A DNA stretch of 64,000 bases from Escherichia phage ECO340P1, in sequence record OP172791; one strand, written 5' to 3'. Shown one piece after another: positions 1 through 11,459 of the stretch (its first letter is position 1; each line of letters begins with the position of its first letter). The notes under the pieces are model-generated. The model was not told the DNA's origin and made no database searches. It saw nothing but the letters and a program-made list of their open reading frames with translations. Both the position numbers and the translations under genes were made by a program.

Positions 1-1
1 G

Positions 2-355
2 GTTGATGTAATCTTTGCAGTAGATTCTGTTCCGGCAGTGATCGCAGTAACACAAGAACCTCTGCTTGTATTCTCTTCGATGTTATGTGCAATCTTAGGT
101 CTACGTGCTCTGTTCTTTGTTCTTAGTGTTGCACTGAAGTATCTGGTTCACTTGGAGAAAGCAGTTATTGTGGTTCTGGTGTTTGTAGGTGTTAAACTAA
201 TGTATCACCCGTTTGCAGAAACGTTACATGAAAAAATGAGCTTCCTGCCAGCGCACATTGATCCAACTATTAGTATGTATATTGTCCTGGGCACATTAGC
301 TCTTGGTGTTATTGCAAGCTTTATCTTCCCTGAAAAAGAAGAAGCTACTGTTTAA
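2..355 (+). CDS. terC: TerC-family integral membrane protein, C-terminal fragment (5' end lies outside the window)
   Basis: Frame from nt 2 translates VDVIFAVDSVPAVIAVT...AILGLRALFF, matching the TerC-family DSxPA and AILGLR signatures; hydrophobic throughout; stop at 353-355. Confidence 0.7.
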   Translation, partial: VDVIFAVDSVPAVIAVTQEPLLVFSSMLCAILGLRALFFVLSVALKYLVHLEKAVIVVLVFVGVKLMYHPFAETLHEKMSFLPAHIDPTISMYIVLGTLALGVIASFIFPEKEEATV

Positions 356-361
356 TAAATG

Positions 362-387
362 AGCCTCCTTCGGGAGGCTATTTTATA
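362..387 (+). terminator. Rho-independent terminator after the TerC-like gene
   Basis: Stem AGCCTCC / GGAGGCT with TTCG loop, followed by ATTTTAT. Confidence 0.6.
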
Positions 388-397
388 GGAGAGATTT

Positions 398-748
398 ATG
401 AGTAATTTTGATGAAATTCAAGAACTTGTTTGGGATTTATCTGGTGATGTGGATTACATTTCAGATTATCTTTCAAAAGTTTACCCTGGGGTAAGCGTTA
501 TGATTGTGACCAAAGATCCAATTAATTTGCCTCCTAATGTTGTAGCTTGTTGTGGAAGTGGTTCAGGAGAAGTAGAGCCTGTATCTCGTTGGGAATTAAC
601 TAAAGCTGTTTCAAAACGAAACGGTGAAGTTTTGAATATTGATATTGAGCAAATATGGACTTCTCCAGCAGCCAAATGGAATGATCCAAATGGTTGGGAT
701 TTGTTCTTCTGGGATAATGAGACTGATGATGAGGTGTTTTTAAAATGA
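398..748 (+). CDS. hypothetical protein
   Basis: 116-aa ORF with ATG start directly after the terminator; no recognisable motif. Confidence 0.5.
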   Translation: MSNFDEIQELVWDLSGDVDYISDYLSKVYPGVSVMIVTKDPINLPPNVVACCGSGSGEVEPVSRWELTKAVSKRNGEVLNIDIEQIWTSPAAKWNDPNGWDLFFWDNETDDEVFLK

Positions 749-990
749 AATACTTGTTGGTTGTGTTTGAAAATATCTGTTTTGCAATAGGGTTGTTTGT
801 TGTAATTTTTGTATTGACAAGCGTAATCAACGGCAGTAAAGTGAGTTTATACCGAGATGGAGAGCAACTTTATTGCTTCTCTGGAGATTTCAAACACAGA
901 TGTATTAATAGCCAAAACGAGGAAAGCAAATATGAAAAAACTAGCCCTGATTTTAATTGGTTGTATCTTTTTAACAGCTTGCGAGGATGA
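745..990 (+). CDS. hypothetical small membrane protein
   Basis: 81-aa ORF with hydrophobic N-terminus; overlaps the lipoprotein start at 932 by 59 nt, so uncertain. Confidence 0.3.
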   Translation: MKYLLVVFENICFAIGLFVVIFVLTSVINGSKVSLYRDGEQLYCFSGDFKHRCINSQNEESKYEKTSPDFNWLYLFNSLRG

Positions 991-1369
991 AACAAATCCT
1001 GCACAATACCAACAACCTCCTCAACAATACGCTCAACAAGGATCTGACGGAGATACAACTATTATCAACAATGGTGGCGGTTCTAGTAGTAGCGGTGTTG
1101 GTGAGTTTGCTACAGGTATGTTGTTAGGGCATATGATGAGTGGCGGTAGTAATCGTAGCAGTGGGGATTATAACGATAACAGAACGATTATTAATAAGCA
1201 TTATAATACACCTAAACCGAAAACTAATTTTTATGGTAAGCCTAAACAAGAGATAAAAACTTATGAAAAGCCGAGACAAACTTTTAAAACAAATAGTAGC
1301 TATACAACTCGTAAATCTTACAATAGCCCTTTAAGTAAAAAGAGTTCATCTCGTAGCAAGCGACGTTAA
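932..1369 (+). CDS. lipoprotein (signal peptide with lipobox LTAC)
   Basis: Internal ATG at 932 preceded by AGGAAAG; N-terminus MKKLALILIGCIFLTAC is a classic lipoprotein signal; Q/G/S/N-rich body and basic C-terminus. Confidence 0.6.
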   Translation: MKKLALILIGCIFLTACEDETNPAQYQQPPQQYAQQGSDGDTTIINNGGGSSSSGVGEFATGMLLGHMMSGGSNRSSGDYNDNRTIINKHYNTPKPKTNFYGKPKQEIKTYEKPRQTFKTNSSYTTRKSYNSPLSKKSSSRSKRR

Positions 1370-1383
1370 TAAGGAGAAAAACA

Positions 1384-1977
1384 ATGACAATTTCTATTCG
1401 TACTTCCATTACAGGTGTTAAAAGTTTGCCTAATGCTTTGCAAATCACACGTGCTTTGAGGGATACGTTCTCTGCTGTGGATGAGCATAAGATGCTCGAT
1501 AATCTCTCAAATTGGCCCTATTTTCATTATTTTAAAAATGAAGACGACGAGTTTATAGACGCTGTTTCTTACGGTTATGATTTCGGTAAGGAGGTTTCTC
1601 CTGAAGAATTTGTAGCTATGGTGTTCCCAAACGGTTTGCCTACTCGCAGTAAACGTAAAAAAGGACCAAAAAACAAGAAACGTGCTACTAATAAAGCTAC
1701 CATTTTCTTTACTGATGGCACACAATATACGATTAAAGATTTTGAAGAGGTATCTTATACAGCAGGTGGGAGTCTTTCTTTCTACACCATCAAAAAACAA
1801 AACTATACGTTCAGCCATGTTTCTAACATGATTGAAATGTTAGTAGAAGATATTGAAAGCGTGGCTGTGTTAGGTATGCATAAAAGCTTTTTAATTACAA
1901 ATATTTCAGATTTCAGTGCAAGTTTATCTGGCCCTGATTTTGAAGCCACGACCACGCATTTCGCTTTTAAGGTGTAA
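1384..1977 (+). CDS. hypothetical protein
   Basis: 197-aa ORF with GGAGA RBS; no motif recognised. Confidence 0.5.
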   Translation: MTISIRTSITGVKSLPNALQITRALRDTFSAVDEHKMLDNLSNWPYFHYFKNEDDEFIDAVSYGYDFGKEVSPEEFVAMVFPNGLPTRSKRKKGPKNKKRATNKATIFFTDGTQYTIKDFEEVSYTAGGSLSFYTIKKQNYTFSHVSNMIEMLVEDIESVAVLGMHKSFLITNISDFSASLSGPDFEATTTHFAFKV

Positions 1978-1980
1978 GTT

Positions 1981-2571
1981 ATGCATACCGAGAGAGACTT
2001 GCAACTCTTGTGGTGGGAAGTGATGCAGGAAATAAAAGAAGATTTTCCTGTTTACTACAACATGTTACGTGAAGCAGGATATAAAGCTTGTGTTAGAAAC
2101 AAAGTGAATAACTCTTTCGGTTGGTGCAACTACCGAGATAAAATTGTTGTTGTAAATTGGCACTTGCATAAGAACTCCACAAGAGATATGATCGTGGATA
2201 CAATGAAGCACGAAATTGCTCATGCTATTGATGGTTGTATGGGTAAGTTTAGTAGGCACGGTGCTCATTGGCAAAAACTGGCAGCAGAATTAGGGGCTAA
2301 TCCTAAAGCCACTTCCAAAGAGCCGTTGAACCACGAATATAAATATGTTCTTGTTCTGGTAGATAGGTTTGCGACAAGATGTGTTAGAGGTTATAATCGT
2401 AAACCTAATCGCATGTACCCAGGTAAGCAACCTAATATGTGGTTGAAATCAGATAAAGAAGGGACCGAAGGAAAATTATGGTTGTATAAATGGGACGATT
2501 GGGTTAAAGTAGCTAAAGAGTACGGTGTTTCACCATATATAAGAGATGCAGAAGAGGAGAATGAAGAATGA
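1981..2571 (+). CDS. SprT-like zinc metallopeptidase domain protein
   Basis: HEIAHAIDGCMGKFSRHGAHW: HExxH plus downstream His and Trp, as in the SprT/WLM family. Confidence 0.5.
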   Translation: MHTERDLQLLWWEVMQEIKEDFPVYYNMLREAGYKACVRNKVNNSFGWCNYRDKIVVVNWHLHKNSTRDMIVDTMKHEIAHAIDGCMGKFSRHGAHWQKLAAELGANPKATSKEPLNHEYKYVLVLVDRFATRCVRGYNRKPNRMYPGKQPNMWLKSDKEGTEGKLWLYKWDDWVKVAKEYGVSPYIRDAEEENEE

Positions 2572-3680
2572 CAAGTCCATTTTTAAAAGCAGCTACTGGT
2601 GGTCAGAAGAAGCCTGAAATGAGCGTATTTGCTGCAACAACAGATGCAAGTAAATCTGTATTCGCTCCAAGCGTGTTAGATGCCAGTCCTGTTTATGCAC
2701 CAGCGGCACCGCAAGAAGTTCCAGTTTTGCCTTCTATGACCCGACAAGAGATTGAAGAGATTGGGGCAGAGGCAGGAACAACCTTGCGTTCCTTGAATGC
2801 CGAGGTGTTAAAACATCAACGTAGTAATCAAGGCGATCAGATGAGTGAACGACTCACAGCTTTGATTAAACAGGCAAAACAACTTGATCCAAACTCTATT
2901 AAACAAAGCAAGGGTATTACTAAACTCATTAAAAAAGTTATGGGTATGAAAGAAGACCTGTTCGGGGAGTTTGATAATGTTAATAACCGTATTGAAGAGT
3001 TGGTAAAGAACCTTCAAATGGATATTCGCAAAGAAGAAGATTCCTTGGTATATCTTGAAAAGCTGCATCAAGCTATTGGACAATATGCTGCAAGTTTGAA
3101 CCGAGATATGCAGCTTCTAACAGCAACCTATGAAAAAGAAGAACAAGCTTTGGCTGCTCTTCCAGAAGATGCAGTAGAACAGCGACAAGTGATCCGAGAT
3201 ACTTTGGATCTTCTGGAGATTCGTATTGCAGATTTAAAAGCATTGCGCCTACTGTGTGTCCAAATGGGACCGCGTGTACAAGGTATGCAAAAAGTTTCTG
3301 CAAGCTTAATGCGATCTGCGCGTAACATAGTAAATAATGTTATTCCTGCTTACTCTGCTAACTTCTCAATGTATATCGAGAGCTTACGTCAAATGAAAGC
3401 AGCAGAGACGCAGAATAACGTTCTTGATGAATTTAACCTGGCAATTAAACTGGGTAGCGATCTTGCCACACAGAATCAGATCGAAGCAGCAGCACTGGCT
3501 AACCGTCAAGTGTTGGATATTGAAACTCTGCGTCACGATCAGGAAAACTTGGTTAAGATGCTGGAAGAAACTAACCGCATCAATACGGAAGCCCGTGCTG
3601 CTCGTGTTGATTATATTAATGAAGTTCAATCTCTGGAAGACGGGATGGTAGCTGCTGTGAAACGAGGGCTTGGTAAATGA
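2568..3680 (+). CDS. TelA-like (toxic anion resistance) coiled-coil protein
   Basis: 370 aa, heptad-rich and charged, size and composition typical of the TelA/KlaB family; sits between TerC and TerD-family genes. Confidence 0.4.
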   Translation: MTSPFLKAATGGQKKPEMSVFAATTDASKSVFAPSVLDASPVYAPAAPQEVPVLPSMTRQEIEEIGAEAGTTLRSLNAEVLKHQRSNQGDQMSERLTALIKQAKQLDPNSIKQSKGITKLIKKVMGMKEDLFGEFDNVNNRIEELVKNLQMDIRKEEDSLVYLEKLHQAIGQYAASLNRDMQLLTATYEKEEQALAALPEDAVEQRQVIRDTLDLLEIRIADLKALRLLCVQMGPRVQGMQKVSASLMRSARNIVNNVIPAYSANFSMYIESLRQMKAAETQNNVLDEFNLAIKLGSDLATQNQIEAAALANRQVLDIETLRHDQENLVKMLEETNRINTEARAARVDYINEVQSLEDGMVAAVKRGLGK

Positions 3681-3874
3681 GAATCCGTATCTATATAATT
3701 GATGAAGACATTGGTGTCCGTTATGATGACGAAAAACGATTCGCACCGATGGGAGGCATATATCCCCCAAGTGTTCTAGCAGTTTGTCGTGATTGTTATA
3801 TTTATGAAGGTTGTCGTAACTTCCGTAAATTCGAACTCCTTGCAGATATTGACTTCAATGAGGAGGAGGAGTAA
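3677..3874 (+). CDS. hypothetical protein
   Basis: 65-aa ORF, start overlaps the upstream stop. Confidence 0.35.
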   Translation: MRIRIYIIDEDIGVRYDDEKRFAPMGGIYPPSVLAVCRDCYIYEGCRNFRKFELLADIDFNEEEE

Positions 3875-4047
3875 TGAAAATATTACGAGTGAATATTGAA
3901 ACTGCTTGGTGTGGATGCAATGAGGTTGTTGATATTGAGATTGAAGAGGATATGTCTCAAGAAGATATCGAAGATCTTGCAAAAGAAACATTCCAGGATT
4001 ATTGTAACTACGGGTTCCATATTTTAGAGGAGGGAGAAGATGTTTAA
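3874..4047 (+). CDS. hypothetical small Cys-containing protein (57 aa, below the ORF-track cutoff)
   Basis: ATG at 3874 overlapping the upstream TAA, GGAGGAGGAG RBS, open to TAA at 4045-4047. Confidence 0.3.
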   Translation: MKILRVNIETAWCGCNEVVDIEIEEDMSQEDIEDLAKETFQDYCNYGFHILEEGEDV

Positions 4048-4243
4048 CTACGAGAACGACCCTAACATTATCCAGTTAACTCGACAAGAACTGATCACAA
4101 TCATGGAAGATGCTTTTATCGATGGGTGGAAGACTCAAAACTATGATTGGAGTGGCCCAGAAGACTTTCTGCGTCTTCATAAAGAGTATGACGAGTCCAG
4201 TGAGACGACTATTGCCATTGACGATCTTAAGGCAGGTGTATAA
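4040..4243 (+). CDS. hypothetical protein
   Basis: 67-aa ORF, start overlaps the upstream gene end. Confidence 0.4.
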   Translation: MFNYENDPNIIQLTRQELITIMEDAFIDGWKTQNYDWSGPEDFLRLHKEYDESSETTIAIDDLKAGV

Positions 4244-4812
4244 TGGGTTGCTTTAGTTTTCTGTGTAAGGAGTCGGGCAAAGCTGCCCTCTCCACCTCTT
4301 TCGATGGATCTCCTTGTTATCTCTTTCTACTGAAAGATGGAAAGGTTATCGAAGAGATGCACGGCAATTATGATAGTTATGGGCGTGTCTTCTCCAGTAA
4401 GCAGGATGCTCACGGGAACAGAGAAAGCTTTAAATGGACTATACCTTGGAGCGACGTTTGTGATCTTATGTTCTCTGTAAACCGTGGAGACGGTATTGCT
4501 ATGGTTTTAGCAGAACACTTTACAGGAGAAGCCCCCACAGAACGATCCGAGGATGATCCTAATCAAGGTTGGGGAGACGGAGACGGAGAAGAAGAAGAGG
4601 ATTATTTCTACAGCACCGAAAATAATATTTTCAAACGTGTTGACAACCCTTATCATAAAGTGCATAATGTCCTCACTGAAACAGAAGACGACAAAATGGA
4701 AATTGAAGAAGATGATCCTCTTGTAACACTTCCTATAAGTGAGTTACAAAAGATCACTAAGGAAGCTTACGATTTGGGCTTCAAAATTGGTAGAGGAGGT
4801 ATGCGTGTTTAG
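4243..4812 (+). CDS. hypothetical acidic protein
   Basis: 189-aa ORF with a D/E-rich central region. Confidence 0.5.
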   Translation: MGCFSFLCKESGKAALSTSFDGSPCYLFLLKDGKVIEEMHGNYDSYGRVFSSKQDAHGNRESFKWTIPWSDVCDLMFSVNRGDGIAMVLAEHFTGEAPTERSEDDPNQGWGDGDGEEEEDYFYSTENNIFKRVDNPYHKVHNVLTETEDDKMEIEEDDPLVTLPISELQKITKEAYDLGFKIGRGGMRV

Positions 4813-5083
4813 ATTCAATATTCAAGAAGAAAAAAGTCAAGATTTACCTATTGCTTTCGAAGATCTTGACGTAGGGGCAACATTCATGTATTATGATGCC
4901 TATGAAGACGCAGGGTTGGATACCTACCGTAACTTGGTGTTCATTAAAAATTCCACAAACAGTGCGATTTGTATTAATGGATCACTAGCACAACGAGGCT
5001 ATACTCATTGCATCCCACCAGATACAAATATGGTGGAAGTAGATTTAGAAGTTACCAATATTACACTTAAGAAGGAGAAATAA
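4805..5083 (+). CDS. small conserved protein, paralog of 6105-6374
   Basis: GTG start at 4805 after AGGAGGT; shares LDVGxTFxY...GLD...VxLxVTxITLK with the 6105 ORF. Confidence 0.5.
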   Translation: MFRFNIQEEKSQDLPIAFEDLDVGATFMYYDAYEDAGLDTYRNLVFIKNSTNSAICINGSLAQRGYTHCIPPDTNMVEVDLEVTNITLKKEK

Positions 5084-5084
5084 T

Positions 5085-5879
5085 ATGTCCGAGAAAATCA
5101 GCCTGAAAAAACGTCAAGAAAACCTTGCTTTCTCTCTGAAAAAGAATAAGAACCTGAATGAAGGTAAGATTGTTCTTCGTGTAGCATGTGCTCTAGATAT
5201 TTCTGGTAGTATGCATGGTCTATATTCTAGTGGGGTAGTGAGTGATTTTGTAGGTAAACTGCTTCCTTTTGGTATGCTGTTCGACGATAATCAACAAATT
5301 GATATGTGGGCCTTCAATACGAGTTCCCAAGAGCTTACTCCAGCAACAGCAGACGTTTACGATGACTATGTTGGTAAATGTATGCGTAATGTTCGTATCG
5401 GAGGTGGAACAAATTACGCCCCTGTAATGGCAGATATCTACGATGAGTATTTTGGCACTGTTACCAAATATATTACCACTAAACAAGTGGTACAAGAGGA
5501 GGCTCCAAAGAAAGGCTTCTTTAATCGTCTGCTTGGTAAAACTGAAACAGTGTCTGTAGAGCGTGAAAAAGTTGTAGCTGTATCTGAACCAGGTGCTGAC
5601 GTTACCCCTGGTGTTGTATTCTTCCAGACGGATGGTGAGAATGGTGATCCTAGTGCTGTTCGTCGTCTTATTGAAGAGAATAAGAATAAACCTATTTATT
5701 GGTTCATGGTTGGCGTTGGTAATGAGAAGTTTGGGTTCCTGAAAGAACTGGCAAATGCTTATGATAATGTTGGTTTTATTGGCATTAAAGATTTAGACTT
5801 GACAGATTCAGAGCTTTATGACAAACTCTTATCTGAGGAGTTCGGAGAGTGGGTTGTTAAAGTAGGTGCTAAAAAATGA
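5085..5879 (+). CDS. vWA domain protein (vWA-TerF/TerY-like)
   Basis: TerD-like KISLKK N-terminus followed by a MIDAS motif DISGSM and a vWA-like fold pattern. Confidence 0.6.
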   Translation: MSEKISLKKRQENLAFSLKKNKNLNEGKIVLRVACALDISGSMHGLYSSGVVSDFVGKLLPFGMLFDDNQQIDMWAFNTSSQELTPATADVYDDYVGKCMRNVRIGGGTNYAPVMADIYDEYFGTVTKYITTKQVVQEEAPKKGFFNRLLGKTETVSVEREKVVAVSEPGADVTPGVVFFQTDGENGDPSAVRRLIEENKNKPIYWFMVGVGNEKFGFLKELANAYDNVGFIGIKDLDLTDSELYDKLLSEEFGEWVVKVGAKK

Positions 5880-6124
5880 TCGACGAGCTTGCCTCTCAAG
5901 TCATAGAAAATTATTGGCGCGAGAGAGAAGCTTTCATTATGCGCAGTCTCAAAGAGTATTTCATTGGGACTGTGCGAATGGAAGATATTGTAAGTAGAGT
6001 GGAGATTCATGTATGGCCCGATTATGAAGAATGGGTTGACAAAGAAAATGAAAATGCTATAATTCTTCGTATATACAAACCGGAGATAACATTAGGAGGA
6101 AGAAGTGTTAAACTTCGAAATTGA
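5876..6124 (+). CDS. hypothetical protein
   Basis: 82-aa ORF, translationally coupled to the upstream gene. Confidence 0.4.
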   Translation: MIDELASQVIENYWREREAFIMRSLKEYFIGTVRMEDIVSRVEIHVWPDYEEWVDKENENAIILRIYKPEITLGGRSVKLRN

Positions 6125-6374
6125 TGAGCAAAAAGTAAATAAACGATGCCTTACCATTAAAGATTTGGATGTAGGAGATACTTTCGTCTATGAAAATGCA
6201 TTTGACGAAAATGGTTTAGACCTTAGTGAAATCATTGTTTATTTAAAAGTAGATGATGGGGAAAATGATTATTCTGCTGTAGAACTAAACCATCATGCAC
6301 AATTAGTATCAATCCAAAACACATCTAAGCTTTTGGAAGTAGAATTGACTGTAACTGGTATTACACTTAAATAA
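6105..6374 (+). CDS. small conserved protein, paralog of 4805-5083
   Basis: GTG start after AGGAGGA; same conserved motifs as the 4805 ORF. Confidence 0.5.
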   Translation: MLNFEIDEQKVNKRCLTIKDLDVGDTFVYENAFDENGLDLSEIIVYLKVDDGENDYSAVELNHHAQLVSIQNTSKLLEVELTVTGITLK

Positions 6375-6389
6375 TAGAGGAGACAAAAG

Positions 6390-6992
6390 ATGACTGATAA
6401 AATTTCCCTGAAAAAAGGCTCTAGCGAAAAAATTTCCCTGAAGAAAGTTGCTCCGGCTCTGAAAGAACTGCGCCTGGAATTCTCTTGGAAATCTGATTCT
6501 AAACTGGATCTGGATGTAAGTGCACTGGTTTGTCGTCACAATGCCGCTGGTAATCCTGAAATGCTGTCTGCACGTCATCTGGTTTGCTATGCTAACAAGT
6601 TTGATCCTGAACGTTCTACCTTCGCTGGTGACGATGTTCGTGATGGAACTGGCAGCATGGAGCAGATTGATATTACTCTGGCTAAAATCTCTCCTGATGC
6701 ACAAGAGATTGCCTTTGTTCTGACCATTGATGATGATACAGGTCTGAAACGTTTTGGTCATGCTTCTGAAGGTATGCTTAAAATCTTCGACTCCGAGCGC
6801 AATGTGGAAATTCTGGATTTTGACTTCCTGGCTCCTGAAGTAGCTGGCAACACAATCTGCCACGTGGCTTCCTTGGTTCGTGAAGATGGGGAATGGAAGC
6901 TGAAAGCATATGGTGTAGGTAAAGCTGGTCTGGATATTTGTGATGTGGTGATGGCCTTCGGTGGTAAAAAAGAATGGTATGAATGTCCATAA
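6390..6992 (+). CDS. terD: TerD-family protein (TerD/TerE/TerZ-like)
   Basis: KISLKKG...KISLKK repeat, LDLDVSALV, GDDVRDGTG and EWKLKAYGVGKAG match the TerD-domain signature regions. Confidence 0.8.
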   Translation: MTDKISLKKGSSEKISLKKVAPALKELRLEFSWKSDSKLDLDVSALVCRHNAAGNPEMLSARHLVCYANKFDPERSTFAGDDVRDGTGSMEQIDITLAKISPDAQEIAFVLTIDDDTGLKRFGHASEGMLKIFDSERNVEILDFDFLAPEVAGNTICHVASLVREDGEWKLKAYGVGKAGLDICDVVMAFGGKKEWYECP

Positions 6993-7010
6993 TAATTAAC
7001 AAATGATTTT

Positions 7011-7030
7011 GAGGGGGAGAAATCCCCCTC
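7011..7030 (+). terminator. GC-rich hairpin after the TerD gene
   Basis: Perfect 8-bp stem GAGGGGGA / TCCCCCTC with GAAA loop; weak U-tract. Confidence 0.5.
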
Positions 7031-7059
7031 TTGCAATAAAGCCTCTATCGTGTTATACT
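7031..7059 (+). promoter_or_regulatory. sigma70-like promoter (TTGCAA-N17-TATACT)
   Basis: -35 TTGCAA at 7031-7036, 17-nt spacer, -10 TATACT at 7054-7059, upstream of the 7092 gene. Confidence 0.55.
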
Positions 7060-7091
7060 AGAAATTCGTTAACTTAAAAAGGAGGCAAAAT

Positions 7092-7613
7092 TTGCTGATA
7101 AAAAACTTTGTAACAGTTGCGTTACTATCCTTAACTGCTTTTACATTTACACCTGTTGTGGCGAAAGCCGAAGCTGCAAACGTAAAAACCGCTAAAGTAG
7201 TTCACAAATGTACAAAGCAATATAATGATAAAATTCTATTAGCTTGTGCAATTTACGCAGAAGGTCGCGGTCTGGGTAAAAAAGGAATGAATGCCGTTGG
7301 GAATGTGGTAATCAACAGAAGAAATGATACCTACTTCCCTAACACAGTCAGAGGAGTCTTGTTCCAGAAAGGACAATTCTCATATGCGAAAACTTTTAAC
7401 GTAACAGAGAAAGATAAGTGGCAGGAAGCAAAAGCAATAGCGGAACGTTTACTTTATTTAGAGAAACATTTTCCTGAATTGCGGTCTGTTTTAGATGTTA
7501 CTAAAGGTGCTCTATACTTCAAGAAACGGAATATAAGGACAAACTGGGAACGTGATATGCGTCTTGTTTATCGAGATAAAGTGCATGGTTTCTATCTACC
7601 AAAGGGGAGTTAA
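7092..7613 (+). CDS. secreted cell wall hydrolase (SleB/Hydrolase_2-like), candidate endolysin
   Basis: TTG start after AAGGAGG; N-terminal signal peptide ...VVAKA/EA; motifs AIYAEGRGLG...VGNVVINR...FPNT...QFSY typical of SleB-family hydrolases. Confidence 0.6.
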   Translation: MLIKNFVTVALLSLTAFTFTPVVAKAEAANVKTAKVVHKCTKQYNDKILLACAIYAEGRGLGKKGMNAVGNVVINRRNDTYFPNTVRGVLFQKGQFSYAKTFNVTEKDKWQEAKAIAERLLYLEKHFPELRSVLDVTKGALYFKKRNIRTNWERDMRLVYRDKVHGFYLPKGS

Positions 7614-7614
7614 A

Positions 7615-7899
7615 ATGCAAGAAGATAATACTGTTGTTGTAGCAAGTTACCTGGTTGTCGGTCTTACCGAAGAGGACGTATACTACACCCGTAAGCATTT
7701 GGAAGCATACGCTACTTTGTTTATGGAAGATGAAAAGGATGTAGATAAATATAGCATTGATATGATCAACGACAGTATTTATCCTTGTATGGTTCTTAAA
7801 GTAGATGCTGTGTTGTGGGAGCGTTTTGCAAGGACTCATGATGCTGTAGAATGCTCCGCAGTAATGTCTCAAAACAACATTTTAGGGGAGATTCATTGA
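7615..7899 (+). CDS. hypothetical protein
   Basis: Internal ATG at 7615 with AGGGGAG RBS chosen over the upstream ORF-track start. Confidence 0.4.
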   Translation: MQEDNTVVVASYLVVGLTEEDVYYTRKHLEAYATLFMEDEKDVDKYSIDMINDSIYPCMVLKVDAVLWERFARTHDAVECSAVMSQNNILGEIH

Positions 7900-8314: not shown

Positions 8315-8878
8315 ATGATTTATTATATTACTCCCTATCTGACAGGAAATATCGGCAAGGCTATCAATGAAGCCATTGCCGTTCTTCCAGATGATAGTTG
8401 GGTGTGTTTAAGAGATACCGATACAATGTTCCTCCTACCTGATCAACCATCTATGCTTGAAGAGCTTGTTATGTCAAATCCGCCTTTTGATGTAATAGGT
8501 GCAACTTGTAACAGGTTAGGCAGTGGTTATCAGCTTTTCTCTAACCAAATTAACGATGATCCAGATATTCTAAACCATATAGAATATGCTAAGATTGCAA
8601 GAGAATATCATAAAGTGAGTGTTGAAGAAGTTCCTTTCGGAACACCTCTAGCAGGTTTCTTCTTGCTTTTTAGAAAATCATTGTGGAATGAAATTCCTTT
8701 CGAAGAAAAATCTATCCAATTCGACTTAATTTTCTCTCGCACTTTACATGAAAAAGGAAAGAGGTTAGGATTGATGCGGGGAATGTATCTGTTTCACATT
8801 TACAGATTAGGTCAAACAAATCCTCAACGGTCTATACATCATTTATTACACTGTCATGATCACAGTAAAACTATTTAG
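8315..8878 (+). CDS. hypothetical protein, possibly glycosyltransferase-related
   Basis: 187-aa ORF with GGAGGGGAGA RBS; first gene of a glycosyltransferase block; no firm motif. Confidence 0.4.
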   Translation: MIYYITPYLTGNIGKAINEAIAVLPDDSWVCLRDTDTMFLLPDQPSMLEELVMSNPPFDVIGATCNRLGSGYQLFSNQINDDPDILNHIEYAKIAREYHKVSVEEVPFGTPLAGFFLLFRKSLWNEIPFEEKSIQFDLIFSRTLHEKGKRLGLMRGMYLFHIYRLGQTNPQRSIHHLLHCHDHSKTI

Positions 8879-8886
8879 GAGAGAAA

Positions 8887-9570
8887 ATGGAAAATATTAA
8901 AATTGGAGTGGGTGTTATCACTGTAGGTGTCCGTCCACTTAAAGACTACCTTGTAACAGATCCACGTGCAGATTTTCGAGTATTCAACGATCCAGATCGT
9001 AAAGGTGTAGCTTATGCCAGGAATGAACTTATGCACCAGTTTTATGAAGAAGGTTATGATTATTGGTTTATTTTTGACGACGATTGCTACCCAGTCATGG
9101 AGGGATGGGAAACATACTTTGTAGGTCAAGCTGTCTCTGGAGGATGGGATTTCTTTGGTATGCCGGAGTATTTCAAAGATAAAGTTGTTGGAAGCAAAGG
9201 AGAAGTTATTCTCTGGGAACTTGCAATGTGTCAATTTGCAATGTATTCTCGTGCCGTTGTTGAGAAGATGGGTTATTTCCGTCCTTACACTCACGGCTAT
9301 GGTTTTGAAGATGCTGAATGGGGACACCGTTTGCAAGCTGCTGGTTTGAATCATGGTATTCAGGCAACACCTTGTCCACTTCGTATCATGGCTTATATCC
9401 ACCCAGACGATGTTTTTGGAAACAATCCTATGCCTTTTGCTAATCTGACAAAAGAAGAGAAAGAAGCTGCTATCGGGATTAACTGGGAAGAATATAAAGC
9501 ATCTTTAGAGGATATTAAAAATGGGAAAATCCGAATTTCCTATGAGGAGGCACTGGCACATGTCAAATAA
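8887..9570 (+). CDS. glycosyltransferase, GT-A fold (family 2-like)
   Basis: N-terminal beta-alpha-beta region GVGVITVGVR and DxD-type motif FDDDC. Confidence 0.55.
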   Translation: MENIKIGVGVITVGVRPLKDYLVTDPRADFRVFNDPDRKGVAYARNELMHQFYEEGYDYWFIFDDDCYPVMEGWETYFVGQAVSGGWDFFGMPEYFKDKVVGSKGEVILWELAMCQFAMYSRAVVEKMGYFRPYTHGYGFEDAEWGHRLQAAGLNHGIQATPCPLRIMAYIHPDDVFGNNPMPFANLTKEEKEAAIGINWEEYKASLEDIKNGKIRISYEEALAHVK

Positions 9571-10507
9571 AAAATGGTCTAAACTAAAAATTGATGCAAA
9601 ACCTCATAGCGGTTGTGACTATCATCGTATTGTTATGCCATTTAACAACAATAATTTTCAACCTAAGAAAGATATTGTTGTGTTTAACCGTATCCACTCT
9701 AAAGGTGCAGAATACGTTTTATCTTTGAAACGTCAAGGTGTTAAGGTTGTTGTAGATTTAGATGATTTTTACCAACTTAATCCAGAGCATTATTTAGCAA
9801 GTCTATACGAGTCAAACACTCATGCTATTGTAGCTATGGTTAAGCTTGCTGATGTGGTTATTGTGACTACAGAATATTTGGCATATAAGATCCGTCACTT
9901 AAATAGAAATGTCGTTGTGATCCGAAATGCACTTCCTTTTGATAGCGGACAATTCACTTTGTCAAATGATCGTTCATCCGGTACCCCTGTTGTATGGGCT
10001 GGCGGTGCTAGTCACGAACCAGATTTACGACTAGTCTCTAATACTTTCGATGATGAACTTCTTACTATTGCGGGATATGAAGCATCACAAAGCATCACGG
10101 GACAAGAGTGGATTAAGATTCGCAGAAATTTACCAAATGCCAAATATAAAGCTGCTGTAAAAGATTTAGATAATTACATGAGTGTTTACGAAAGTCATGC
10201 TATTGCTATAGCTCCTTTGGTAGACAATGATTTTAATAATTGTAAAAGTAATCTCAAAATCCTGGAAGCTGGAGCAAAAGGTATTCCGATTATTTGTTCT
10301 AAGGTATTACCTTATTTTAACCCTGTAGATGCTCGCGCTGTTGCTTACGCAGAGAATAAAGCAGAATGGCATTACGAAATTGTTAAGCTTCTTCGCAATC
10401 CAAACTATCGGGAAGATCGTGGCTTGTTCTTGGCTGAACATGTTCGAACACATTATAATCTGGCAGATGCAAACGAGTTGCGACGCCAGGTTATTGAAAG
10501 TTTGTAG
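9560..10507 (+). CDS. glycosyltransferase, GT-B fold (GT1/GT4-like), paralog of 10515-11459
   Basis: ATG at 9560 after GAGGAGG; C-terminal KSNLKILEAGAKGIPIICS resembles the GT-B nucleotide-sugar binding motif; clear paralogy with the next gene. Confidence 0.55.
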   Translation: MSNKKWSKLKIDAKPHSGCDYHRIVMPFNNNNFQPKKDIVVFNRIHSKGAEYVLSLKRQGVKVVVDLDDFYQLNPEHYLASLYESNTHAIVAMVKLADVVIVTTEYLAYKIRHLNRNVVVIRNALPFDSGQFTLSNDRSSGTPVVWAGGASHEPDLRLVSNTFDDELLTIAGYEASQSITGQEWIKIRRNLPNAKYKAAVKDLDNYMSVYESHAIAIAPLVDNDFNNCKSNLKILEAGAKGIPIICSKVLPYFNPVDARAVAYAENKAEWHYEIVKLLRNPNYREDRGLFLAEHVRTHYNLADANELRRQVIESL

Positions 10508-10514
10508 GTGAAGT

Positions 10515-11459
10515 ATGGGACAAATAATTCTTGACAATCGTAACGGAATCAATTATAGTGTCTGCGATTTCCATAGGGTAGTGCTGCCTTACTCAAGGCA
10601 GTTCTCTTCACAACCTAAATACAACGTTTTCGTTTTTAACGGAGTGCCAACAAAAGGTAAAGAGGGCTTTTTAGCCCTTAAAAACCTAGGCTTTAAAATG
10701 GTTATGGATTTGGATGACTCTTTAGTTATTCCAAAAGGACACATGTTAGAAGGTATTTTTGAATCAGGTATTCGTGAACATTTAAAATGGTTTTTAGAGC
10801 ACAGTGATCTTGTTACAACTACGACACCTGCCTTGCAAGTTGAACTTTCACAATACAATGATAATGTGCACATAATCCCTAATGGACTTCCTTATGACGA
10901 AGGTCAATTTGTGTTGACCCGTGATCGCTACTCCAAAACTCCATTAGTCTGGGCTGGAAGTGAAACACATAAGCAAGATTTGGCTATCTTGCCCGATTTT
11001 GGTAAAGATCTTACAATATGTGGTTTTCGTAGGGATTCTGAAGTTTTAAGTAGTCGTGAATGGTCTGTAATCAGAGAAAATGTAGCACCAACTTGTGTTT
11101 ATGAAGGTGTAAGACCATATGCCAACTACATGGAATCTTACGATGGTCATCAAATCAGTCTTGCGCCACTGATTGATAACGTGTTTAATAATGCAAAAAG
11201 CAATCTTAAAATTCTTGAGGCAGGTGCTAAGGGTTTACCTTTGATCTGTTCTCCTCGTGAGAATTATCATACACAAGAGTTTAAAGATCTGTTGTTCTTT
11301 GCTGAAACACCTTCCGAGTGGAAAGATATTACGGAATACTTATTAAGTGCTCCCGATGTTTGCATGGAGAAAGGATTAGCATTAGCTAAGTATGTCAGGA
11401 CTCATTATCACATTGATGTGTTGAATGAGCGTCGTAGACTTTTATTTGAGGAGCTATAA
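10515..11459 (+). CDS. glycosyltransferase, GT-B fold (GT1/GT4-like), paralog of 9560-10507
   Basis: Shares CDYHRIVMPF/CDFHRVVLPY, PVVWAGGASHEPDL/PLVWAGSETHKQDL and KSNLKILEAGAKG motifs with the upstream gene. Confidence 0.55.
   Translation: MGQIILDNRNGINYSVCDFHRVVLPYSRQFSSQPKYNVFVFNGVPTKGKEGFLALKNLGFKMVMDLDDSLVIPKGHMLEGIFESGIREHLKWFLEHSDLVTTTTPALQVELSQYNDNVHIIPNGLPYDEGQFVLTRDRYSKTPLVWAGSETHKQDLAILPDFGKDLTICGFRRDSEVLSSREWSVIRENVAPTCVYEGVRPYANYMESYDGHQISLAPLIDNVFNNAKSNLKILEAGAKGLPLICSPRENYHTQEFKDLLFFAETPSEWKDITEYLLSAPDVCMEKGLALAKYVRTHYHIDVLNERRRLLFEEL

Follow-up and report, generated by a model that had tools for sequence, protein, structure and literature searches.

In a stretch of 64,000 nucleotides (nt) from Escherichia phage ECO340P1 (sequence record OP172791; the whole stretch is referred to as the window) we identified two paralogous small genes, copy A and copy B, that are packed with short gaps or overlaps against the genes for a vWA-TerF-like protein and a TerD-domain protein (Table 1). 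Ter-type genes (TerD, TelA, TerC and TerF-type vWA) are widespread in bacteria, on plasmids and in some phages, and confer resistance to tellurite, phages and colicins. To our knowledge, how the Ter proteins work together is still unclear. The small proteins belong to a rare family that is confined to one phage lineage, and we tentatively favour the view that they may be lineage-restricted accessory partners of the phage vWA/TerD pair.

Copy A starts with GTG at 4805, 6 nt 3′ of GGAGG (4794–4798), and its stop codon ends 1 nt before the ATG of the vWA gene. This start was chosen rather than an upstream GTG at 4739 because M1 and F4 are invariant throughout the family. Copy B starts with GTG at 6105, 5 nt 3′ of AGGAGG (6094–6099), and the gap between it and the ATG of TerD is 15 nt and includes AGAGGAG. 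An earlier sequence-only reading of this DNA, made by a model without database searches, had described the two open reading frames (ORFs) as paralogues that start with GTG after a ribosome-binding site. Its coordinates and frames were right, and pairwise alignment confirms the relationship: the two proteins align end to end with 34 % identity and 54 % positives (E-value 2e-14), and both match phrog_11278 (PHROGs v4) over their full length (copy A, residues 1–92 of 92, E-value 4.2e-51; copy B, residues 1–89, E-value 7e-45). The family had not been recognised in that reading either, and this impression was borne out, as the small proteins have no match in Pfam, NCBIfam or PADLOC and nothing meaningful was found in a profile search of PDB sequences; their sole label is a PHROG to which no function is assigned. 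Conserved positions across the family are L21, G24, T26, F27, A32, Y33, G37-L38-D39, K48, A54, L57-N58, V79, L81, V83 and L88. The motif proposed from the two copies therefore holds in part: L21, G24, F27, G37-L38, V79, L81, V83 and L88 and, with some reserve, T26 and D39 are family-conserved, whereas the D and V of its 'LDVG' are not.

We also considered whether the small protein could be a fragment or a member of the TerD family, and rejected this, as an hhalign comparison with the TerD alignment gave a probability of 0.3 % (E-value 0.23) and Pfam returned no match; hhalign likewise detected no relation between the small family and vWA. In the public record of phage EF1-1, copy B (6598–6867) is labelled as an RNA ligase, which no search supports, and copy A (5231–5573) is broken by a frameshift.

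Over 5.2 kb, the window shares ∼96 % identity with dozens of Escherichia phages of the phAPEC8 type (Phapecoctavirus, Stephanstirmvirinae), whose genomes measure ∼150 kb, and every member of the small family whose context was examined falls within this one lineage. A word-indexed homologue search yielded 2 clusters with copy B alone and 22 clusters with an alignment as the query. When 1.84 billion representative proteins were searched exhaustively with a profile, 20 matches resulted, all of 54–93 amino acids (aa) except one false positive, P0034 (1191 aa), which had matched on FN3-like repeats and was rejected as a family member. In a phage collection the family was present in 126 records, all of the Stephanstirmvirinae type; IMG/VR contributed three loci, and a genome set of 185,579 species gave a single match, on a 99 %-identical phage contig of 18.6 kb that had been binned into a metagenome-assembled genome. 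In sequence searches covering bacterial proteins, the family accompanied no bacterial TerD and occurred in no other TerD-bearing phage. A more distant copy A (54 % identical) is carried by Pseudomonas coronafaciens phage PsgM04F. In addition, database entries ∼96 % identical to the window (matching 2500–7700) name Campylobacter jejuni, Acinetobacter, Klebsiella or Shigella as the phage host; such host labels for a coliphage genus look doubtful, or point to contamination.

Within the lineage, the small genes were found nowhere but beside vWA and TerD. Small, vWA and TerD genes were placed by local profiles in every locus compared, and in all 20 family-bearing loci (27 small genes) the small gene abuts vWA, TerD, or a second copy that itself abuts TerD, with a spacing that ranges from short overlaps to ∼40 nt in the loci checked by coordinates. 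No further small copy was present elsewhere in the 64-kb window or in any locus compared. At the same time, the gene order (S, small gene) is variable. A single copy stands first in S-vWA-TerD, the order of phi92, Klebsiella phage 05F01 and two IMG/VR contigs, and lies in the middle in vWA-S-TerD (loci L006–L009 and L022); two copies are separated in S-vWA-ORF-S-TerD, as in the window, phiWec190 and loci L020, L025 and L026, and adjacent in vWA-S-S-TerD (L010–L012). Around the same vWA/TerD pair, relatives have one, two or no small genes. The family members in these loci are as low as 22–30 % identical to copy A, and the TerD and vWA proteins alongside them are 44–63 % identical to those of the window. 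Conservation of the small ORFs beside TerD genes elsewhere, on which the sequence-only reading had staked its pairing, is accordingly observed within this lineage. The sequences are too short to tell whether A or B is the older copy; judging from position, the place between vWA and TerD seems to be the older of the slots.

The small protein is modelled with good confidence, probably as a generic SH3-like small β-barrel. AlphaFold, supplied with a 21-sequence alignment, predicts for copy A short β-strands and one helix (residues 30–36), with a predicted local distance difference test score (pLDDT) of 84.6 and a predicted template-modelling score (pTM) of 0.75; the conserved N- and C-terminal segments are less well defined and are unpaired in the monomer. 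In a Foldseek search of the BFVD viral models the top match was an 89-aa protein of phAPEC8 (the length of copy B, and 34 % identical to A) with a template-modelling score of 0.81–0.83, and the remaining fold neighbours, all of them weak, were small proteins from many unrelated phages that have not been characterised. Known SH3-like barrels (ribosomal protein L2 C-domain, DtxR/IdeR C-terminal domain, FeoA, EF-P domain I, KOW and Tudor) are 4–21 % identical to the small protein, and profile comparisons link it to none of them; it differs from them in the additional helix and in the unpaired conserved termini of the monomer model. All of the small proteins are acidic, with isoelectric points of 4.3–5.5 and net charges of −2 to −11.

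Both neighbours match their Pfam families above the gathering score. The vWA protein, which begins MSEKISLKKRQENLAFSLKK, matches PF10138 with an E-value of 1.6e-37 (130.1 bits against a gathering cutoff of 29.4), and its metal-site signature DxSxS...T...D is intact, with D38, S42, T109 and D183 invariant and S40 near-invariant among 35 homologues. The TerD protein, which begins MTDKISLKKGSSEKISLKK, matches PF02342 with an E-value of 3.2e-28 (98.9 bits against a cutoff of 25.3) and aligns with the Klebsiella TerD structure 2KXT over residues 5–183 (E-value 1.5e-15). Its N-terminus is the canonical doubled motif ISLKKGSSEKISLKK, which aligns to VSLSKGG--NVSLSK of 2KXT. Both proteins open with K-I-S-L-K-K followed by a second h-S-L-K-K (K-I-S-L-K-K...F-S-L-K-K in vWA), and alignment of the two N-termini upholds the earlier observation that the KISLKK motif is common to vWA and TerD; in a profile–profile comparison the first ∼20 residues match (E-value 6.6e-5, probability 64 %), and there is no match beyond them. 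L7, K9, L18 and K20 are near-invariant in 35 vWA-TerF-like proteins down to 28 % identity, including bacterial ones (Neobacillus), and the motif is also found in bacterial TerD-vWA fusions, where it lies between the two domains, before vWA. Such bacterial TerF-type fusions resemble the phage vWA both in their vWA part, to which it is 28–31 % identical, and in the h-S-L-x-K double motif before it; they differ in that the phage has TerD and vWA as separate genes, with one or two small-barrel genes alongside. In both vWA and TerD the first 24 residues are basic (net +4 to +7). AlphaFold predicts a vWA-type α/β fold for the vWA protein (pLDDT 91.6) in which residues 7–20 are helical rather than a TerD-like hairpin, so that the motif may differ in structure between vWA and TerD. 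The vWA model also contains a long two-stranded β-hairpin insertion (residues 125–141 and 153–169) outside the Pfam core match. Several public labels for these proteins were unsupported by our searches, namely, in Klebsiella phage FKP3 (2612–4103), 'HNH endonuclease' for TerD, a label that some other records also use, and 'tail protein' for vWA.

On the basis of the repeated arrangement, the sequence-only reading had spoken of a tandem duplicated two-gene cassette, and on this point the evidence does not support it: the small genes are paralogous, but vWA and TerD belong to different Pfam families and match in residues 1–21 alone. The duplication is limited to the small gene. One might still suppose a recent local duplication of DNA comprising the small gene and the 5′ end of its downstream neighbour, the second gene having been replaced afterwards, as the same motif opens both downstream proteins and the two junctions between small and downstream gene are collinear, showing 76–77 % DNA identity over 37–39 nt, in register, at a spacing of 1300–1305 nt. 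However, as the motif is general to TerD and vWA-TerF-like proteins of bacteria and phages alike, it is not the product of a local duplication. The Ser codon, moreover, is AGC in one junction and TCC in the other, which points to similar peptides and not to recently duplicated DNA. Given also the low identity of the two small proteins and the existence of relatives with single-copy and with adjacent-copy gene orders, we regard a duplication of this kind as highly improbable.

Signals for expression were assigned by consensus and sequence matches, not from measured transcripts. The perfect σ70 consensus promoter upstream of copy B (Table 1) lies inside the 3′ part of the 82-aa ORF, and an identical site precedes copy B in phiWec190. 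In phi92, which is without copy B, TTGACT-16-TAAAAT occupies the equivalent place directly before TerD, and copy B therefore sits between TerD and its promoter. A promoter of the form TTGAC(T/A)...TA(A/G)AAT is found at the same intergenic position directly before TerD in phi92, FKP3 and Citrobacter phage Tr1. The hairpin just after TerD is a possible terminator, with no clear U run, and phi92 has a terminator-like hairpin after TerD too. With a perfect σ70 consensus before them and a hairpin behind, copy B and TerD would be expected to share one transcript, synthesised by the RNA polymerase of the host. The promoter-like site upstream of copy A, situated in the 3′ part of the 189-aa ORF, has an equally distant counterpart in both phi92 and phiWec190; as it lies within coding sequence, its conservation may stem from the protein and is weak evidence.

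The small genes are under purifying selection, but are far less constrained than vWA and TerD. Identity between the window and phiWec190 is 90 % for TerD, 74 % for vWA, 54 % for copy A and 45 % for copy B. As near-identical phages (0–6 differences) were uninformative, the ratio of non-synonymous to synonymous differences (pN/pS) was determined against phage WPEC4, and amounted to 0.02 for TerD, 0.08 for vWA and 0.38 for copy A, values that rest on few substitutions; it was not computable for copy B, which has no synonymous differences.

Exclusive adjacency to vWA and TerD through several rearrangements, tight spacing, and promoter and hairpin signals that would fit co-transcription are our reasons for considering the small protein as a possible accessory binding partner, whether adaptor or modulator, of an abbreviated Ter-type module of TerC, TelA, vWA-TerF-like protein and TerD. 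The small protein would then physically bind vWA, TerD or both, and two candidate contacts can be put forward. The acidic barrel could lie on the basic stretch formed by the first 24 residues of vWA and TerD, or the conserved, exposed G-L-D loop could give a carboxylate to the vWA metal site. Such a site normally takes a carboxylate from its ligand, as in vWA and integrin I-domains. The opposite charges and the intact metal-site residues of vWA also count in favour of a partner role. In phages with two copies, each might be specialised for one partner. A more specific version, according to which the barrel would be a true Ter subunit that docks on the shared basic h-S-L-K-K motif or plugs the vWA metal site with G-L-D, and in this way controls assembly of TelA, vWA and TerD at the membrane with one copy per partner, appears unlikely to us as a whole. 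A different role again would be that of a regulator of downstream gene transcription or translation which, like the SH3-like KOW, Tudor and Sm-like proteins, binds nucleic acid or polymerase. Whilst this agrees with the position of a small gene first after a consensus promoter, the marked acidity of the proteins speaks against direct binding of nucleic acid and none of the KOW, Tudor or Sm families is matched at the sequence level, making a regulatory role of this type rather improbable.

A number of observations weigh against the accessory-partner reading, and several of them favour an explanation that we consider almost as likely: that these are ordinary early phage extra genes, for example for binders of host proteins, which entered promoter-proximal insertion slots and were then inherited, without any tie to vWA or TerD. 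Close relatives can do without the family, which is absent from ∼6 of 131 Stephanstirmvirinae records with closely related TerD, among them FKP3 and Tr1 (vWA 67–68 % and TerD 81–86 % identical), in which an unrelated 53-aa ORF replaces both the 189-aa ORF and copy A. No member was found in the distant phages L016–L019, which share the TelA...vWA-TerD-hydrolase synteny, or in the Ter version of Caulobacter phage CcrColossus, and D39 of the G-L-D loop is not invariant across the family. As all members belong to one syntenic lineage, their adjacency may be plain inheritance, not separable from function. Furthermore, the unrelated phrog_4658 fills the same two positions, namely the gap between vWA and TerD in L017 (4244–4594, 116 aa) and the place before vWA in L018 (3153–3485, 110 aa), which indicates that these positions accept unrelated small genes; its proteins are small and acidic, and are frequent in KP15-like phages of Klebsiella, Enterobacter and Cronobacter, a group with no representative among the TerD matches. 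An unrelated ORF of 46 aa stands at the corresponding position in L019. The fast evolution of the small genes relative to vWA and TerD, in identity as in pN/pS, the fold neighbours among small proteins of many unrelated phages, and a region dense with small ORFs to which no function is assigned all fit insertion slots as well. Nevertheless, the small family, unlike phrog_4658, was not seen away from vWA and TerD, it has kept contact with them through at least three gene-order rearrangements, and it has been duplicated, possibly repeatedly, with both copies retained beside vWA/TerD.

If the small protein were a specific Ter subunit, it would offer a simple two-protein handle on the poorly understood biochemistry of Ter. 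A small protein confined to the vWA/TerD neighbourhood would, if co-expressed, be a cheap entry to the interaction surface of TerD or vWA. Should it not bind, it would be one more fast-evolving early phage gene, and the gains would be a corrected annotation and the recognition of the N-terminal motif as a feature of the TerD and vWA-TerF families. What was known already is the phage Ter module itself and the small family as a PHROG without function; the predicted fold, the restriction to one lineage and the strict placement next to vWA and TerD were absent from the literature covered by our searches, to which a 2012 comparative-genomics paper on Ter did not belong. The phrog_11278 entry, which both copies match in full, differs from the present description in having no annotation of function or context. 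Iyer et al. (2021; PMC7824862) reported abbreviated phage Ter systems with TerC, TelA, TerF-type vWA and TerD from jumbo and other tailed phages, and the same gene set has been reported from Klebsiella phage phiKp34 (PMC8386662). Superinfection exclusion or protection from envelope stress is proposed in both papers, and the module as a whole may change the envelope of infected cells, for instance so as to exclude other phages (PMC7824862). The window resembles these systems in that one strand of an early-type region encodes a TerC fragment, TelA, vWA-TerF-like protein and TerD, and differs from them in its small, predicted SH3-like protein beside vWA and TerD, of which, as far as the passages on phage Ter systems in the two papers show, there is no mention.

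Table 1. Coordinates of the small genes, their neighbours and the putative expression signals in the window
Feature	Position	Strand	Match or remark
TerC/Alx-family membrane protein, C-terminal 105 aa	38–355	+	NCBIfam TIGR03718, E-value 2.1e-24, model positions 215–302
SprT-like	1981–2571	+	
TelA-like protein	2568–3680	+	Pfam PF05816, E-value 3.2e-33
Three small ORFs	3677–4243	+	
189-aa ORF	4243–4812	+	
σ70-type promoter-like site, TTGACA-17-CATAAT	4640–4668	+	Consensus match, 11/12; ∼165 nt before copy A
Small protein copy A, 92 aa	4805–5083	+	GTG start; isoelectric point 4.4; phrog_11278
vWA-TerF-like protein, 264 aa	5085–5879	+	Pfam PF10138
82-aa ORF	5876–6124	+	phrog_22387 (no function annotated)
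Perfect σ70 consensus promoter, TTGACA-16-TGnTATAAT	6036–6063	+	Consensus match, 12/12 and extended −10; 42 nt before copy B
Small protein copy B, 89 aa	6105–6374	+	GTG start; isoelectric point 4.3; net charge −11; phrog_11278
TerD-domain protein, 200 aa	6390–6992	+	Pfam PF02342
G+C-rich hairpin, 8-bp stem, 4-nt loop	7011–7030	+	−17.2 kcal/mol, z −3.2; just after TerD
SleB-type cell-wall hydrolase	7092–7613	+	

With TerC, TelA, vWA-TerF and TerD all on one strand, the window carries an abbreviated phage Ter module. The TerC/Alx gene is truncated by the start of the window, so that the phage Ter-type gene set continues past its left edge; TerC is full-length in related loci, and the identical four-component set is present in L012 and L006. 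A Pfam scan of the ORFs at 1–7613, the part of the window so scanned, detected no TerB, no extra TerD paralogues, and no phosphoribosyltransferase or HAD biosynthetic genes, components that would mark a full bacterial terZABCDEF-type system. In a search of PADLOC-DB with E-values up to 0.01, the small proteins, vWA, TerD, TelA, the 82-aa ORF and the 189-aa ORF matched no defence-system model. The 82-aa ORF is confined to the two-copy order S-vWA-ORF-S-TerD; its protein is conserved in phiWec190, and its pN/pS against WPEC4 is 0.12. Finally, a run of four ORFs lies 3′ of the hydrolase at 8315–11459, and three of the four have orthologues in EF1-1 that are annotated as glycosyltransferases. Two adjacent ORFs of the run (9521–10507 and 10515–11459) resemble paralogues, which would represent a further local duplication in the region.

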